A DNA stretch of 64,000 nucleotides from Camelus dromedarius (GCF_036321535.1 NC_087436.1:36334001-36398000); one strand, 5' to 3'. Numbered from the stretch's first letter, positions 3,264-9,618 are shown. A program made the numbers and translations. Notes: a model not told the origin generated them from the letters alone.

Positions 3264-3629
3264 CCTGGTGCTTTTCACTGAAGGGGCTGAAAAGAAAAAT
3301 AAGTCATGGCCCTCAAGGAGCCTTCACTTTAGTTTAACAGTAATATTGCCAAGCTTGTGGAACTATAGAACACACTCTTCCCAGTAGCATCAGATGTTAA
3401 AATTCCACAAATAAAATACACCGTTGTTCTGGTTAAAGCAACATTTAAAGCTACATGTATTGAAGGACTGAGGTTAAGTCTCAACACTGTAAATTGAGCA
3501 CCTCTTAGATTTCATGGTACAAGACTGACTTTTAGCTGTAGCTCATGATAAAGTCCTCCAATGACTCCTCTTGAGTGAACCAAACTTGACCCAAGAATAG
3601 ACTCTAGACAGTGAAAGCACTTTTTTCTT

Positions 3630-4114
3630 TTGAGTGAAGGTAGATTTATTCAGAGAGATACATTGAAAGGCAAGAGAAAGGCCACGAGGTGTGGGGGTTG
3701 GGTGCTCAGATTAGAAGTAAGTACACATTCCATAGACAGAATTTGGGCCATCTCCGAAGGGAGAGGGGTGGCCGAGAGGCATCGTGTTGCTGGTTTTTAT
3801 GGGCTTGGTGGTTTCATATGCTAATAAGTGGAAGGACCAGTCTAAGGGGAAGCGGCTGGGGTTCCCAGGAAGTTGGCCTTTTCCCACTCTTAGACCTTCT
3901 GTGGCTAGCCTTGGGACTGCCATGGTGCCTGTGGGCATGTTATTCACCATGTTAATACTACAATGGGCATATAATGAAGCTCAGGATCTACTAGAAGTTA
4001 TATCTCTCATCATCCTGAGCCTCAAGGCCTACTGGGGGTTGAATCTTCCACCACTTTGATGTTAATTGCTGTGGCACTCCTTGAGTGGCTGTGCCCTGCC
4101 CTCTTCCTGTCTCA
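3630..4114 (-). promoter_or_regulatory. 3' LTR portion U3-R of the ERV retrocopy (MER41-like)
   Basis: Begins TGAGACAGG directly after the polypurine tract. TATA-like CATAAAAA (3801-3794), octamer-like ATGCTAAT (3818-3825, + strand), AATAAA (3650-3645); ends at CTCAA about 14 nt after AATAAA. Confidence 0.88.
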
Positions 4115-4124
4115 CTCCCCCCTC
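4115..4124 (-). other. Polypurine tract (PPT)
   Basis: GAGGGGGGAG immediately 5' of the LTR-initial TG on the minus strand. Confidence 0.85.
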
Positions 4125-4183
4125 AGAGATTTTACTCCCATAATCTTATGGGGTTGCAGGGGGGGCGAAGGTCCGTCATCTGA

Positions 4184-4470
4184 AACTGCTTCCAGGCTGA
4201 GTAGGGGCGTTGACCCTGCCTATCAGGGAGTAAAACTCTCTGAATGCCTAATCTAGGGGCCCCAGGGGTAGGACAGTCTTTTGTTTTTGCATGCAAGGGC
4301 TGAGGGTGTGGGCTGGAATCCTCACATAGCCATCATCTAATGTGGGGCTGCTGTAACCCACTGTTTTCATTGACTTTTGATGAATTTTCTTAAAGATGAA
4401 GCACCTTTGTACCAGCAGTCTGACAGTCTGTAATGACAAAAAGACTTAAAAGGCATGGTTAAACATTTGT
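4184..4470 (-). pseudogene. env: env remnant: only the extreme TM C-terminus
   Basis: PCLLSLFV (TM membrane-proximal GPC-like), GPLD (4262-4251) and CGCCCCTACTCAGCCTGGAAGCAGTT, which resembles the end of HERV-W-type env. Only about 370 nt separate the pol stop from the PPT. Confidence 0.6.
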
Positions 4471-4488
4471 AATCACCACTACACGGTA

Positions 4489-5865
4489 TCATTTGTTTTT
4501 CATAAACAGGTACCTGAGGTCTAATATTGCCTCGCAAGTTGTAGGTCTCTCCTGGCTCCTGTTGGGGCTTATAAATTACAGGTTTTATTCTGGACAGATG
4601 TACCCAACTAGCAATTCCCTGTAGCTTAACGGCAGTTGGGGTGCTCAGTAGTACCTGACATGGTCCCTTCCATTTTGGCTGCAGCTGGTCTTCAGGGGAT
4701 CCCTCCTTCCAAGTTTTTAGTAAGACAAAGTCCCCTGATTGGACAGGGACTTCAGCCTTTTCCTCTGTGGGAAAGGGCAACATTTTGTTTCCATATTCTT
4801 GGAGAGCCTTTTGAACTTGACTTAAGCTAACAGTGTGGGAAACTAATCTATGAGTCTCCTCATCAAACCGGAAATCTGAAGTTAAAAAGGGTCTCTCATA
4901 CATCATTTTAAATGGGCTAAGTTTTAAAATTCCCTTAGAGGCCGTCCTTATTCTTAGAAGGGCTATCGACAGGAGGGGGACCCAGGTTTCTGAAGTCTCC
5001 TGACGTAGCTTAGCAAGTGTTCTCTTTAGAACATGATTTGCTTTTTCCACCTTGCCTGAGGATTCGGGCCTCCAGAAAGAGTGGAGGCAATAGTTAATAC
5101 CCAGAGAGCAGGAAACCTGTTAAATCACCTTGGCAGTGAAGGAGGGTCCATTATCACTCTGTAAGCTTTTTGGTAGCCCAAATCTTGGGATTATTTCTTT
5201 CAGCAGAAATTTTGACACTTCTATTGCTTTTTCCATTCTGGTGGGGAACGCTTCTACCCATCCTGTAAAGGCGTCTATGAATACCAACAGGTATTTCCAT
5301 CCCTTACAAGGAGGCATCTGAGTAAAGTCTATTTGCCAATCTTCCCCTTTATAAGTTCCCCGATGTTATGTGGGCCAGAGTAGAGGTGGAGGGATAGGGT
5401 AACTCCCTGGGTCATTGCGGGCACAAAGTTCACATGCCCTAGTGACTTCCTCAACCGTTTGGGACAGCCCCTTGCCTAGGAACACTTGAGAGATTAGTCT
5501 GAGCATGGAGTCCCGCCCTAGGTGGGTGGGCTCATGGAGATGCTTAATTATTTCCCATTGTTTGTCCCCAGGAATGGGGAGCTTATTATCTTTTGTCAGC
5601 CACCCCTAGAGATTCTTCTCTAGCCCCCTATGTTTAGCCCATCAGCCCGCTTCAGGTGTAGAGGACGGCGCTGTTGGGAGAGGCTGGTCCTCAGGTAGGA
5701 GAACTGCAGCTTGTAAGGCCGGCTGTTCTCTGGCTGCAGCTTTGGCAGCCTTGTCTGCGAGGGCATCCCCCTGTACAAGGGAAGACTCGCCCTTTTGGTG
5801 ACCCCTGCAGTGCATGACTGCAACCTATTCTGGAAGCTGGACTGCTTCTAGGAAGTTTAGAATTT
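4489..5865 (-). pseudogene. pol: pol remnant: RNase H C-terminus plus integrase, no RT
   Basis: ILNFLEAVQLPE*VAVMHCRGHQKG...ALADKAAKAAA (RNase H); HLHEPTHLG...CELC (HHCC); WQIDFTQM, LQSDNGPSF, SGKVEKAN (DDE); LQPKWKGPCQVLL (GPY/F-like). Several stops and a frameshift. Confidence 0.93.
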
Positions 5866-6184
5866 TTGCCTGGAGTTTACTGAGTAAATCCCTTCCCAAC
5901 AAGGGGATGGGGCACTCAGGCATGAGCAAAAACTGATGGCAAAGGTAAAATTTTTTAGCAGGCAGCTAAGGGGGGCTGTAAATCGCTTGGTTTGGGGCTT
6001 TCTGTCAATCCCTGTTACTACACAGGATTGGGAGGACAAGGGTCCAGGGAAATCAGTCAGCAGAGTAGGCGGCTCCTGTATCTAATAAGAAAACTTTTCT
6101 ATCTGCCATGTCAAGGGTTATCTGAGACTCCTCCAGAGAAAGGACCAGGTATCCTGTGGGAGCCATGGAGGGTCCCGGGCCCCG
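5866..6184 (-). pseudogene. pro: Retroviral aspartic protease (frameshifted)
   Basis: FLLDTGAAYS active-site motif, VVTGID flap region, FLLMPECPIPLLGRDLLSKLQ C-terminal motif. Confidence 0.92.
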
Positions 6185-7714
6185 TTGGTCTTCAGTTACC
6201 TCAGCCATCATTGGTTTGGGAGTCCCAAGCCCCCCTCGGGACTGGGGGCAGTCCCGCTTCCAGTGGCCTTTTTGTTTGCATATCGGGCGGGGTTCCCATG
6301 GACCTTTTTCAAACATAGGGCATTTGTTCTTCCAGTGGCCCTCCTGGCCGCACTTAAAACAGGTCCCATTTTGGCAAGACAGTGGCTCTGACTCAGGCAA
6401 CCTGGATCCTGTCCTCGCCATGGGTCTTCTTGAAGGAGGGTAACCCTGAGGTGGCGCAGGGTTTAGGGCAGCCGCTAGGAATTGTGCCTTTTGCTGTTGT
6501 CCCTGGATCCTTCTTGCCTCTTCAACCCTGTCTCTATTGTTAAATACCCCAAACACCAGATCCACAAGCTGATTCATGGGGGTCTGGGGTCCCAGAGCTG
6601 CCTTTTGTAATTTTCTCCTGATGTCTGGGGCCAACTGAGTGATAAAATGGGTATTTACCAGGACTTCCCCCTCAGTGGTTTCGGGGTTAATATTAGTATA
6701 CTTTTTAAAGGCCTCCACTAAGTGGCCCTGGAAAAGGGCTGGATTCTCTTTTCCCCGTGTTACTTCCCTGACTTTGTCATAGTTGATGGGCTTAACAACA
6801 CATTTTTTTCATCCCCTCTATGAGGCAAGTTACCATATGGTTTCTGCATTCAAGCTCTCTACCTCCCTATTGGTAGTTCCAGTGGGGGTCTTGGTCAGGG
6901 ACTGCATCCCCCCCTAGTAAGGTAGATTATGTGTCCATGGTTGCCAGTCCATCAGCATATGCCCGGGCTGCACCGAGGATCTGGCTTTTTTCCTCAAAAG
7001 TGCAGCAGGTTGAAAGGAGGACCTGTAAGTCCCTCCAGGTAAGCTCATAGGCCATTTTAGCCTGACAAATTCCTCCATGAACCTACTGGGGTCCTCGAAG
7101 AAATGTCCAAATTTCTCCTTACAAGTAGCTAAATCAGCCATAGGAAAGGAGACATGAACTCTGATTGTTCCCCCATCACCGGCTGGCACTTCCCTTAAGG
7201 GGCAGAGTTTGGCAGTAGGAGGTTGGTAGGTGGCCCCACCTGGAGCAGGACTTTCCTCCAGTGAGGGAGATGACGGGGAAGACTGTTCCCCTTCAGAGTT
7301 GGGGGAAATAGGAACTTCTGGCTGTGGACCTTGGGGAGCTGGACTCATAAGGGGGTCATCTAGAATACTGAGCTCCTGTGGGAGGAGATGCTTAGAGGGG
7401 ATGCGGGCCAGGAATATCCGGCAGGAGTTCCTTAGACCTGGGTTTTGGTATAGGGTCAGGAACATTTGGACATATGGGATTTCCCCCCATTTACCTCCTC
7501 TTTTACAAAATAGGCCTAGCTGTAAGATGGTATTGTAATTTAATGATCCATTCTTTGGCCAGACCTCTTGGTCTCCTACTTTGCATCAGGGCCATGCAGT
7601 ATTACAAAGGAAAATTAATTTCTTTTTCTTTAAACTATCCTTTTAAAACTTTTTCCAGTTAATTAATATGCATCCTACTGGGGGGTCCTTTGGGATACTT
7701 GTAGTTGTCCCCAT
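6185..7714 (-). pseudogene. gag: gag (MA-CA-NC), HERV-W/ERV9-related, with stops and frameshifts
   Basis: ATG at 7714: MGTTTSIPKDPPVGCILINW...LIFLCNTAWP...WPKNGSLNYNTILQLGLFCKRGGKWGEIPYVQ. MHR-like ENPALFQGHLVEAFKKYT; FITQLAPDIRRKLQK; zinc knuckles CFKCGQEGHWKNKC and RPICKQKGHWKRDC. Confidence 0.95.
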
Positions 7715-8018
7715 TTTGGTTAGGATGTCCTATCTGTGAGCCTGAGGTGGCTCCCTTGGACTAGTTAAGGAAAGGAACAAAGGCCAGAGGGAGAAAAGGT
7801 GACTAGAGTCCCAGAGTCTAAATCCTTTAGAGGGAAGGAGGAGACTTAGGTCCTGAGTCAACTAAGCAAATTACGTTTTGTGAAAGAGAAACAAATAGCA
7901 TCGAAAGGTGGAAATCTAGAACAAAAAAGGAATGCTATAGCCACAATGCCTCTTAGACCAGAGATCCGAAGGTCCATTAAGGGAGTATCTGCCTGTGGCT
8001 CCCACTCAGGGGCACCAT

Positions 8019-8245
8019 AACCTGTGACTTGTGGAGAGCACTCGCCAGCAACTCTCACTCAGGGGTGCTTAAACCCATGACCCCACCAAAGGGTGCTAAA
8101 ACCTGCGACCCCATGAAGGGGTGAGAAAACCTGCAACCCCACCGAGGGGTGCAAAAACCTGCGACCCCACCGAGGGGTGCGAAAACCTGTGACCCGTGAA
8201 CAGAGCACTCGCCGGTAACTCTCGTTCAGGGGTGCAAAACCCACG
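8019..8245. repeat. 28-bp tandem repeat array in the ERV 5' leader, bracketed by two copies of a ~48-bp unit
   Basis: Units AGGGGTGC(A/G)AAAACCTGCGACCCCACCG start at 8061, 8089, 8117, 8145, 8173 (partial at 8228). AACCTGTGAC...GAGCACTCGCC...ACTCTC..TCAGGGG occurs at 8019-8065 and 8184-8232. Confidence 0.9.
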
Positions 8246-8787
8246 ATCTGCAAAGGGAGTGCCTGCCCTGACTCCTGTCTACGGATGCAATGAGGCTCTA
8301 TGCCCCTAGGGCATTTGGGGAGGGCCGGGCCACAAATTTTTAAAGGGAAACTCCTGGAATCCCCTAATTTGGGCTCCCTTTTGCAGTTCCGGCATCCTGG
8401 AACCAGACCAGTGCCCTGTAGAGAGGTGGAATTGGGCACAAAGAGCCATGGAGGGAAAGCTCACCCAATCAGGTTGCCAATTACTTGCCACGTGGTCTTA
8501 ATGTCCGAGTGGTCACCTTCGTGGATCTTCTTGAGTCCGAAGAGATAGATCGCTAGAGGAGAGAATGAGAAAAGATTGAGGGGAGAAAACTTGGGCTCGG
8601 TGGGCTCCTTCACGGCTGGTGAGCTGGTCTCTGCCAGATCCTACAGGCAGCGTCAGCCGCCACCTAAGGGCTACTTGAATCTGCAAGGCGTGAGAGAAAC
8701 CCCCTGCCACCCTCCGAAGAGAAGGGAGCCATAACCCAATAGGCGGATCGAGATTATGCCCTCTGAGCCCTGCTTCTTTATGTAAAT

Positions 8788-8807
8788 GCCCCACACGTTG
8801 GGCGCCA
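8788..8807 (-). other. Primer-binding site, tRNA-Lys1,2 type
   Basis: TGGCGCCCAACGTG(TG)GGGC versus canonical Lys1,2 PBS TGGCGCCCAACGTGGGGC; lies 6 nt after the U5 terminal CA (8814). Confidence 0.85.
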
Positions 8808-8813
8808 GAGATA

Positions 8814-9087
8814 TGATGCAGGAAAACAGATGTGGGGCATGAGGAGGGCTGTGTCCCAGGTCTCGGTTGAGCCCCTGGGATGTGCCCTGCCAAGTGTTGG
8901 TCCTTGGCTACATGCAGGAAAGAATTCAACAGCCAGCCACAGTTGAGTGAAGGTAGATTTATTCAGAGAGATACATTGAAAGGCAAGAGAAAGTCCACGA
9001 GGTGTGGGGGTTGGGTGCTCAGATTAGAAGTAGGTACACATTCCATAGACAGAATGCGGACCATCTCCAAAGGGAGAGGGGCAGCCA
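8814..9087 (-). mobile_element. 5' LTR portion R-U5 of the ERV retrocopy
   Basis: R is 9087-8943 (matches 3774-3630). U5 is 8942-8814, ending ...TTCCTGCATCA. No U3 upstream; the TSD follows directly. Confidence 0.9.
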
Positions 9088-9618
9088 AAAGCACTTTTTA
9101 TAGAAACGAATGAATATAAGACCAATATAAGCTCTTGATGTCAGAGTTAGCAGAATTCAGTATATACATCCCCTACAATGTCTGTCGATGTCTTAATCAC
9201 TTAAGCAATGACTTAACATAGGCTTTGGAAGCATAACCCCCAACCCCTCTTTGCTCCTAGGGTTCAAGTGGCATATTGCTGTTCTGAAAGACCTCTCTGA
9301 ACAAAGTACAGAGTTAAATATTGATCAGAACAAAGCTGAGGGAAATGGAGATCTTAGTTGTTCAAATGGCAGCAAAGCTAGCCAAGTTGTATTGTTACAG
9401 AAGTCTGCCAGATTTATACTGGGGGCCTCCATTGTGTAATAATACAATGGAAATCAAGTCTCCTTGAAATGTGTTAATAAAAAAAGGAAACACTGGGGAA
9501 CAGAGGATTAAACAAAATTCAAAATATTGTTTTGCTGCAGGTCTTTTAAAAGTCTTTATATGCCAATATCTTCTAGAAGTGCAAGAGGTAAGATATTCTC
9601 CAGATATATTTGACTACG

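Follow-up and report, generated by a model that had tools for sequence, protein, structure and literature searches.

A dromedary endogenous retrovirus copy with the outline of a viral transcript, and its relatives in the same genome

The window, by which we mean the whole stretch of 64,000 nucleotides of Camelus dromedarius DNA analysed here (GCF_036321535.1, NC_087436.1:36334001-36398000), carries on its minus strand a 5,462-bp copy of an endogenous retrovirus (ERV) spanning positions 3626-9087. We consider it very probable that this element arose as a processed retrocopy from a retroviral transcript, by target-primed reverse transcription of the type performed by the long interspersed element LINE-1 (L1). 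Taken singly, the locus is a fairly ordinary fossil, and the interesting part lies in the pattern that its family shows across the genome.

Boundaries of the window element

The element is flanked on both sides by the 12-mer AAAGCACTTTTT (3614-3625 and 9088-9099), which reads AAAAAGTGCTTT in the sense of the element and which we regard as its target-site duplication (TSD), with the upstream copy at 9088..9099 and the downstream copy at 3614..3625. The two repeats are identical at 12/12 positions; identical 12-mers are met in the window at 2.6e-7 per position pair (1-20 kb spacing), and over 11 x 11 placements around both element ends about 3e-5 such matches are expected by chance. The nick site is accordingly AT|AAAAAG (...TAT|AAAAAGTGCTTT). 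A single extra base (9087, T in sense) stands between the upstream TSD and the GGC with which the R region starts. This 5' R (144 nt, 8943..9086) opens with GGCTGCC, contains an AATAAA near its end and has no U3 upstream; it is followed by a U5 of 129 nt (8814..8942) that terminates in CCTGCATCA and occurs on the 5' side of the element only. On the 3' side, and only there, a U3 of 341 bp (3774..4114) starts with TGAGACAGG immediately behind the polypurine tract GAGGGGGGAG (4115..4124) and includes the TATA-like sequence CATAAAAA (3801-3794), 26-27 nt ahead of the start of the 3' R. The latter (144 nt, 3630..3773) terminates in ...CACTCAA, about 15 nt beyond its AATAAA signal (3650-3645), and is followed not by U5 but by AAGA (3626..3629, in sense), the remnant of an A tail. 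Since the downstream TSD itself begins with AAAAA, and these five leading A may also be tail, the length of the A tail can be given as 4-9 nt. All of these features lie on the minus strand, as do those of the window element described further below.

The sole homology between long terminal repeat (LTR) pieces in the window pairs 8943-9081 with 3630-3768 and reaches, by eye, 9086/3773; the two R copies, 9086-8943 on the 5' side and 3773-3630 on the 3' side, mismatch at 8/144 positions. In the same within-window comparison no U3 homology was found upstream of 9087 and no U5 after the 3' R, the homology to the 5' copy ending at 3630 (...CACTCAA), and the window holds no further copies of the element's LTR family. 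The distances of R start and R end to the TATA-like box and to AATAAA are those expected of cap and cleavage sites. An earlier note on this DNA had proposed an RNA-shaped ERV copy that is without a 5' U3 and a 3' U5, that begins at the cap site expected from a TATA-like sequence, and that is bordered by a 12-bp TSD; the LTR homology, the position of the GGC start behind CATAAAAA and the perfect flanking repeat bear this out. Its estimate of a ~614-bp LTR also holds, as the pieces described above sum to a reconstructed full LTR of about 614-615 bp. Its account of the 3' end stands as to the stop of R shortly behind AATAAA, and has to be amended as to the tail, which is very short, since five of the A's counted as tail can be assigned to the TSD just as well.

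Relatives in the same genome

Family searches were run on the window's own assembly (G000; 2.3 Gb, 171 contigs). At their 3' ends, 18 of the 29 other best LTR matches stop at the same R end and continue with an A tail (up to about 30 nt), and 11/29 continue into U5. A 28-mer composed of the R end plus A8 matched the genome 241 times and a 28-mer composed of the R end plus U5 1,080 times (at most 2 mismatches each), with 0 matches for the reversed-pattern controls of both; the two counts are lower bounds, family copies diverging by 10-18% from one another. For the 5' ends, 23 loci were examined from 40 scored loci bearing the leader, the segment between LTR and gag: U3 is missing in 16/23 and present in 7/23, and retrocopies make up ~70% of the leader-bearing loci examined. 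Among the U3-less 5' ends, 15/16 open with GGC(C/T), or do so within 2 nt, at the position at which the window element starts. The picture was the same for the 20 fetched 5' ends, where U3 was absent in 13, mostly with a GGC(C/T) start, and short copies behaved likewise.

Two side observations concern these 5' ends. The copy L075/L060 (C37:13.65 Mb) has one additional G ahead of the usual start; an additional 5' G of this kind is often put down to copying of the cap. Two U3-less copies, L072 (C6:55.02 Mb) and L077 (C2:28.60 Mb), have about 45 nt of near-identical 5' flank in common, so that either one retrocopy was later duplicated together with its surroundings, or both reside inside copies of another repeat.

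The unspliced donor junction in the leader (see below) matched the genome only 21 times (at most 3 mismatches), and therefore copies with internal sequence should number a few tens. Because these are so few, the majority of the 241 poly(A) ends are probably short, 5'-truncated pieces, a reading with which the variable starts of homology agree. In the case of one further copy, L086 (C7:54.26 Mb), homology was lost after element position 4241 and no 3' end was encountered within the 7.5 kb fetched.

Canonical proviruses of the family exist as well. The provirus L082 has two full LTRs that are 93.9% identical and is colinear with the window element; together with L063-L070 and L073, which likewise combine full LTRs with this internal structure, it suffices as a source of the transcripts. 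As a separate matter, at least 6 near-identical proviral copies with full LTRs (e.g. L020, L027, L028, L030) lie on one small contig, C38, at ~4.49-11.12 Mb. The region looks ampliconic, as though DNA duplication had multiplied the provirus there, and is perhaps sex-chromosomal.

TSDs were compared in 12 copies with both ends defined, a small and non-random sample picked from the best matches. They measure 11-17 bp in 11/12 copies: 12 bp in the window element and in L018, 16-17 bp in L004, 11-12 bp in L006, 11 bp in L081, 13-14 bp in L075/L060, and 15 bp in L084 and L071/L093, plus three with one mismatch each, namely L083 (14-15 bp), L085 (~15 bp) and L087 (11 bp). The twelfth, L088, shows ~7 bp with one mismatch. 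The 11 clear TSDs all have A as their first base, at least 7 begin with AA and 5 with AAAA; the base ahead of the TSD in these 11 copies is T six times, C three times and G twice, which is the right trend in a small sample. TSDs of ~11-21 bp were also recognized in the 5'-truncated copies L002, L007 and L016. Solo LTRs of the family, by comparison, carry 4-bp TSDs (TAAT/TAAT, GAAA/GAAA, ATAC/GTAC). The solo LTR flanked by GAAA/GAAA happens to lie ~420 nt downstream of L087 (C1:60.85 Mb), a retrocopy consisting of leader only, so that the family inserted twice, independently, in a stretch of 1.6 kb.

That an RNA was the intermediate is proven by spliced and chimeric copies. The splice donor GATTGG|GTGAGC (8459..8470; exon end 8465) is unspliced in the window element and used in spliced and chimeric relatives. 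Three copies of 1.4 kb (L004, L006, L018) run from R through U5 and leader to GATTGG, proceed with sequence near the end of pol and conclude with U3-R-A(n). Two acceptors within 4420..4451 account for their joints: ...TTTTAAG|T (exon start 4444) was used in L004 and L018, and ...TTACAG|A (exon start 4427) in L006, such that GATTGG| is followed by |TCTTTT in the one case and by sequence starting 17 nt beyond in the other. Read in the unspliced window element, both introns have GT...AG borders, and no env follows either acceptor. The first of the spliced junctions has 2 genome matches. Other copies represent RNAs that ended early: L084 extends 18 nt beyond the first exon and then has a tail, and L087 ends within the leader with an A8 tail, each having a TSD.

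In a further copy, L085 (G000:C17:19921391-19923279, minus), the same ERV donor is joined to host sequence that encodes an F5/8 type C domain. The host part matches four separate blocks over 90 kb (G000:C19:24920562-25010815) at 91-95% identity, meaning that three host introns have been removed, and the copy has a poly(A) tail and its ~15-bp TSD. L085 is thus a retrocopy of an LTR-initiated, fully spliced ERV-host chimeric mRNA. Its parent gene is presumably BTBD9-like. Among the 40 scored matches none was a source provirus near the parent gene (C19:25.0 Mb). L085 indicates that the LTR drove a chimeric transcript of a host gene in cells contributing to the germ line.

Internal region, class and age

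Six nucleotides past the end of the LTR, the window element contains a 20-mer, TGGCGCCCAACGTGTGGGGC (8788..8807), resembling a primer-binding site (PBS), which we take to be Lys-tRNA-like. Between the PBS and gag lies a leader of ~1.2 kb (7586..8787), with a tandem array of a 28-bp unit in 4.8 copies (8061-8195; 82% matches); alignments to relatives shift at this array, so its length differs among copies. Remnants of gag and the start of the protease follow at 6053..7585 and include a matrix/p12-like part, a capsid with Gag_p30 and a nucleocapsid (NC) with two CCHC knuckles; the gag region is open in two stretches, 7585-6914 and 6808-6053, which are in different frames or separated by stops. 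The RNase H tail and the integrase occupy 4367..5824, in several frames, with an H2C2 zinc finger, the rve core and an MLV-type C-terminal domain. Pfam matches in the element comprise Gag_p30 (3.4e-11), the two CCHC knuckles, Integrase_H2C2, rve and MLVIN_C (1.7e-14), and every gene is interrupted by stops or frame changes. Nothing resembling an env was seen between the integrase and the polypurine tract, and env is absent from all family copies looked at.

Relative to L083, a 7-kb relative that has an extra 1.9 kb at window position ~5870 with RVT_1 and RNase_H, the window element is without most of the reverse transcriptase (RT), and the comparison places the breakpoint of the deletion at 5867..5873. 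The RT-deleted form is common to the processed copy L081 and the provirus L082, which are colinear at 88-89% identity. Since a processed copy and a canonical provirus carry the same form, the RT deletion is older than the retroposition, and the template RNA came from a provirus that was already defective, without env and with its RT deleted. The earlier note had spoken of a full-length genomic RNA; this part has to be withdrawn, the element measuring 5.46 kb with no env and most of the RT missing.

The Gag_p30 and MLVIN_C domains, and the 4-bp TSDs on the solo LTRs of the family, support assignment of the element to the class I (gamma-like) ERVs, in agreement with the earlier note. Among named proteins, the gag fragment is best matched by a Gag polyprotein from Camelus dromedarius (84% identity over half of the query), which gives indirect support to the camelid origin that the earlier note considered probable. 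On the assumption of generic mammalian neutral rates, the 93.9% identity of the L082 LTRs and the 8/144 differences between the R copies of the window element suggest that the family was active ~10-30 million years ago. Twenty public runs from 10 studies, all of one organism, contain the stretch with 0.70-0.78 of its words present; at most ~0.44 of its words could be present without the element. Judged by this word content, the insertion is probably common or fixed.

Route of insertion and comparison with known systems

Our reading of the window element as a processed retrocopy is based, at the locus itself, on the R start, the R end, the A tail and the 12-bp TSD. It is far more strongly supported by the family, with its 241 poly(A) junctions, the recurrent U3-less start, the long TSDs, and the spliced, chimeric and truncated copies. 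Retroposition by the L1 machinery, which the earlier note had advanced from the window alone, is hence backed by the locus and, more firmly, by the relatives in the same genome. We envisage the following course of events. A defective class I provirus, devoid of env and with its RT deleted, would have been transcribed from its 5' LTR, presumably in the germ line, with the start at the U3/R border; the RNA would have been left unspliced and would have received its poly(A) tail after cleavage at the R/U5 border in the 3' LTR. The L1 ORF2p would then have taken the poly(A) tail in trans, nicked the A-rich target ...TAT|AAAAAGTGCTTT and reverse-transcribed the entire RNA on the chromosome, yielding an R-U5-leader-gag-pro-(delta RT)-IN-U3-R-A(n) product (IN, integrase) between 12-bp duplications. 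The window copy was dead on arrival, as there is no promoter at its 5' end. The same route very probably gave rise to hundreds of family copies, be they full-length, spliced, prematurely ended, 5'-truncated or ERV-host chimeric.

Several findings fit this course of events less well. At the window locus the A tail is very short, consisting of AAGA and the run of A in the TSD, and the bases ahead of the nick are AT, the textbook sequence being TT. Within the family, the U3-less 5' end of L080 is without the GGC start, the full copy L088 has nothing but its weak TSD, and the provirus L082 lacks a matching 4-bp TSD (AAAC on one flank; AGTA or TCAA on the other). A convincing TSD is also missing in 7/10 of the apparently 5'-truncated copies (L008, L010, L011, L017, L021, L023, L026), where the real 5' ends are probably not located at the point at which the alignment to the window element stops.

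The short A tail would likewise suit an ordinary, integrase-made provirus that lost its 5' U3 and its 3' U5 through two separate deletions and is bordered by the 12-bp repeat by coincidence; ERVs are often deleted, and the window element does have large internal deletions. Such deletions, however, must have ended exactly at the transcription start and exactly at the poly(A) site, next to a repeat with a chance expectation of ~3e-5, and the same two boundaries recur at numerous independent loci that have long TSDs and tails of their own. The integrase-made copies of the family show 4-bp TSDs. We consider the probability of this scenario to be practically negligible. A further question is whether the retroposition was brought about by an RT other than L1 ORF2p, either that of another LINE clade or the ERV's own enzyme acting at a chromosome break. 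The enzyme is deduced here from the insertion signature, and the targets are only loosely TT|AAAA-like, given the bases found ahead of the TSDs (T 6, C 3, G 2 of 11). On the other hand, the retroviral RT together with integrase makes 4-bp TSDs in this family, and stringent LINEs, for example those of the RTE type, require their own 3' tail rather than poly(A). Dependence on poly(A), TSDs of 11-21 bp with A in first position, 5' truncation, intron loss and capture of spliced host mRNA constitute the established signature of trans-mobilization by L1 (feature list in PMC5537654). Moreover, L1 with an open ORF1 is abundant in this genome: the L1 ORF1 domain PF02994 gave 11,616 first-look candidates genome-wide, 148/150 of those scored have no stop, and many have identical scores and lie in open frames of 315-330 aa, from which we suspect a young and perhaps still active L1 subfamily. 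We therefore attribute the insertion to L1 ORF2p and hold a different enzyme to be highly unlikely.

A self-standing, L1-dependent composite retroposon of the SVA kind, assembled from ERV parts and amplifying in its own right instead of being copied from proviral transcripts, would be in line with the numerous R-poly(A) copies (241), the few leader-bearing ones (21 matches to the unspliced donor) and the majority share of retrocopies among those with internal sequence (16/23). A retrocopy starting at R, though, has no upstream promoter and could not serve as a master unless it landed behind one, and the canonical proviruses with identical internal structure and full LTRs suffice as sources. 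The copies mirror many transcript isoforms, with an unspliced form, two spliced ones, some that ended prematurely and a chimera, instead of one composite unit, so that the fixed architecture of an SVA-like element was not found. This makes such a retroposon very improbable, even more so than the involvement of a different enzyme.

Ordinary processed pseudogenes made by L1 have the same hallmarks, namely intron loss, poly(A), 5' truncation and TSDs of 7-20 bp, and L085 is essentially an ordinary processed pseudogene plus an ERV first exon. The difference is that the template here is a retroviral LTR-to-LTR transcript. In copy number, the family rivals the most prolific cellular genes. With SVA and LAVA elements the family has in common that ERV-derived sequence is moved by L1 in trans; SVA, however, is a fixed composite with an amplification lineage of its own, whereas the copies described here are direct images of proviral transcripts without an upstream promoter. 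ARTenvV of the Hippotraginae is a single L1-made retrocopy of a co-opted ERV env with a 14-bp TSD at a TTAAAA site (PMC9604959). In both cases L1 retrocopied mRNA of ERV origin in an artiodactyl genome, but ARTenvV is one event on a domesticated gene, and the dromedary case is an entire ERV family in which hundreds of events left ends defined by the LTR. The same source states that surveys found retrocopies 'including ERVs' in various mammals. In a survey of camelid transposable elements (PMC8605555), 'polyA' and 'retropos...' do not occur and the single 'processed' is unrelated. We found no published case on the scale of a family outside the catarrhine ERV-W elements in a search that was thin on subscription journals and did without Repbase and Dfam, so that a prior description is possible.

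The closest parallel is HERV-W. For the L1-mobilized pseudogenes of this group, Pavlicek 2002 and Costas 2002 are the works cited (in PMC5537654, PMC5016936 and PMC6995185). According to PMC5537654, HERV-W is the only HERV group mobilized by L1, what confines the process to this group is unknown, and 135/213 human copies, about two thirds, are processed pseudogenes. The same paper gives as their features a 5' LTR reduced to R-U5, a 3' LTR reduced to U3-R with a poly(A) tail behind it, a TSD of about 5-15 nt or more and an insertion motif of the TT/AAAA type. ERV-W-like elements of New World monkeys show no processed copies, which PMC6995185 terms 'rather unexpected'. The dromedary family resembles HERV-W in the R-U5...U3-R-poly(A) form, in TSDs exceeding the size made by integrase, in A-rich sites, in the embedding of AATAAA in R and in its class I, gamma-like affiliation. 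The proportion of retrocopies is similar too, with 16/23 of the copies with internal sequence here versus 135/213 in human (PMC5537654). Further likenesses are an NC with two zinc knuckles and a long leader ahead of gag (PMC5537654, PMC6995185), as well as retrocopies that have lost a leader segment through splicing (PMC6995185), represented here by the spliced 1.4-kb copies.

Differences concern the host, which is not a primate, and the source lineage, which is without env and, in one sublineage, also without RT. The LTR and the PBS differ as well, the PBS of HERV-W being of the Trp type and the one found here putatively Lys-like. Poly(A) ends are more numerous in the dromedary (at least 241), the majority probably on short pieces that lack their 5' part, and at least one retrocopy is an ERV-host chimera. 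The window element has the structure of a HERV-W-type processed pseudogene; this likeness is a structural one and does not file the element under the ERV-W group.

We are somewhat inclined, if only by a little, to regard the family as a second family-scale amplification of an ERV by L1, located outside the primates and independent of primate ERV-W, in which an env-less and partly RT-less lineage would have propagated its internal sequence chiefly through L1 and would also have seeded LTR-driven chimeric retrogenes. The family pattern also bears on annotation: what would pass for 'truncated LTR' fragments are, in several hundred instances in this genome, retrocopies, to which dating by LTR divergence does not apply. 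A second large and independent family in another mammalian order would amount to a natural replicate of the HERV-W case. If this is true, the unknown determinants of the capture of ERV RNA by L1 become testable by comparing the dromedary family and HERV-W with respect to their common features, the timing of L1 activity and the expression of their LTRs in the germ line.

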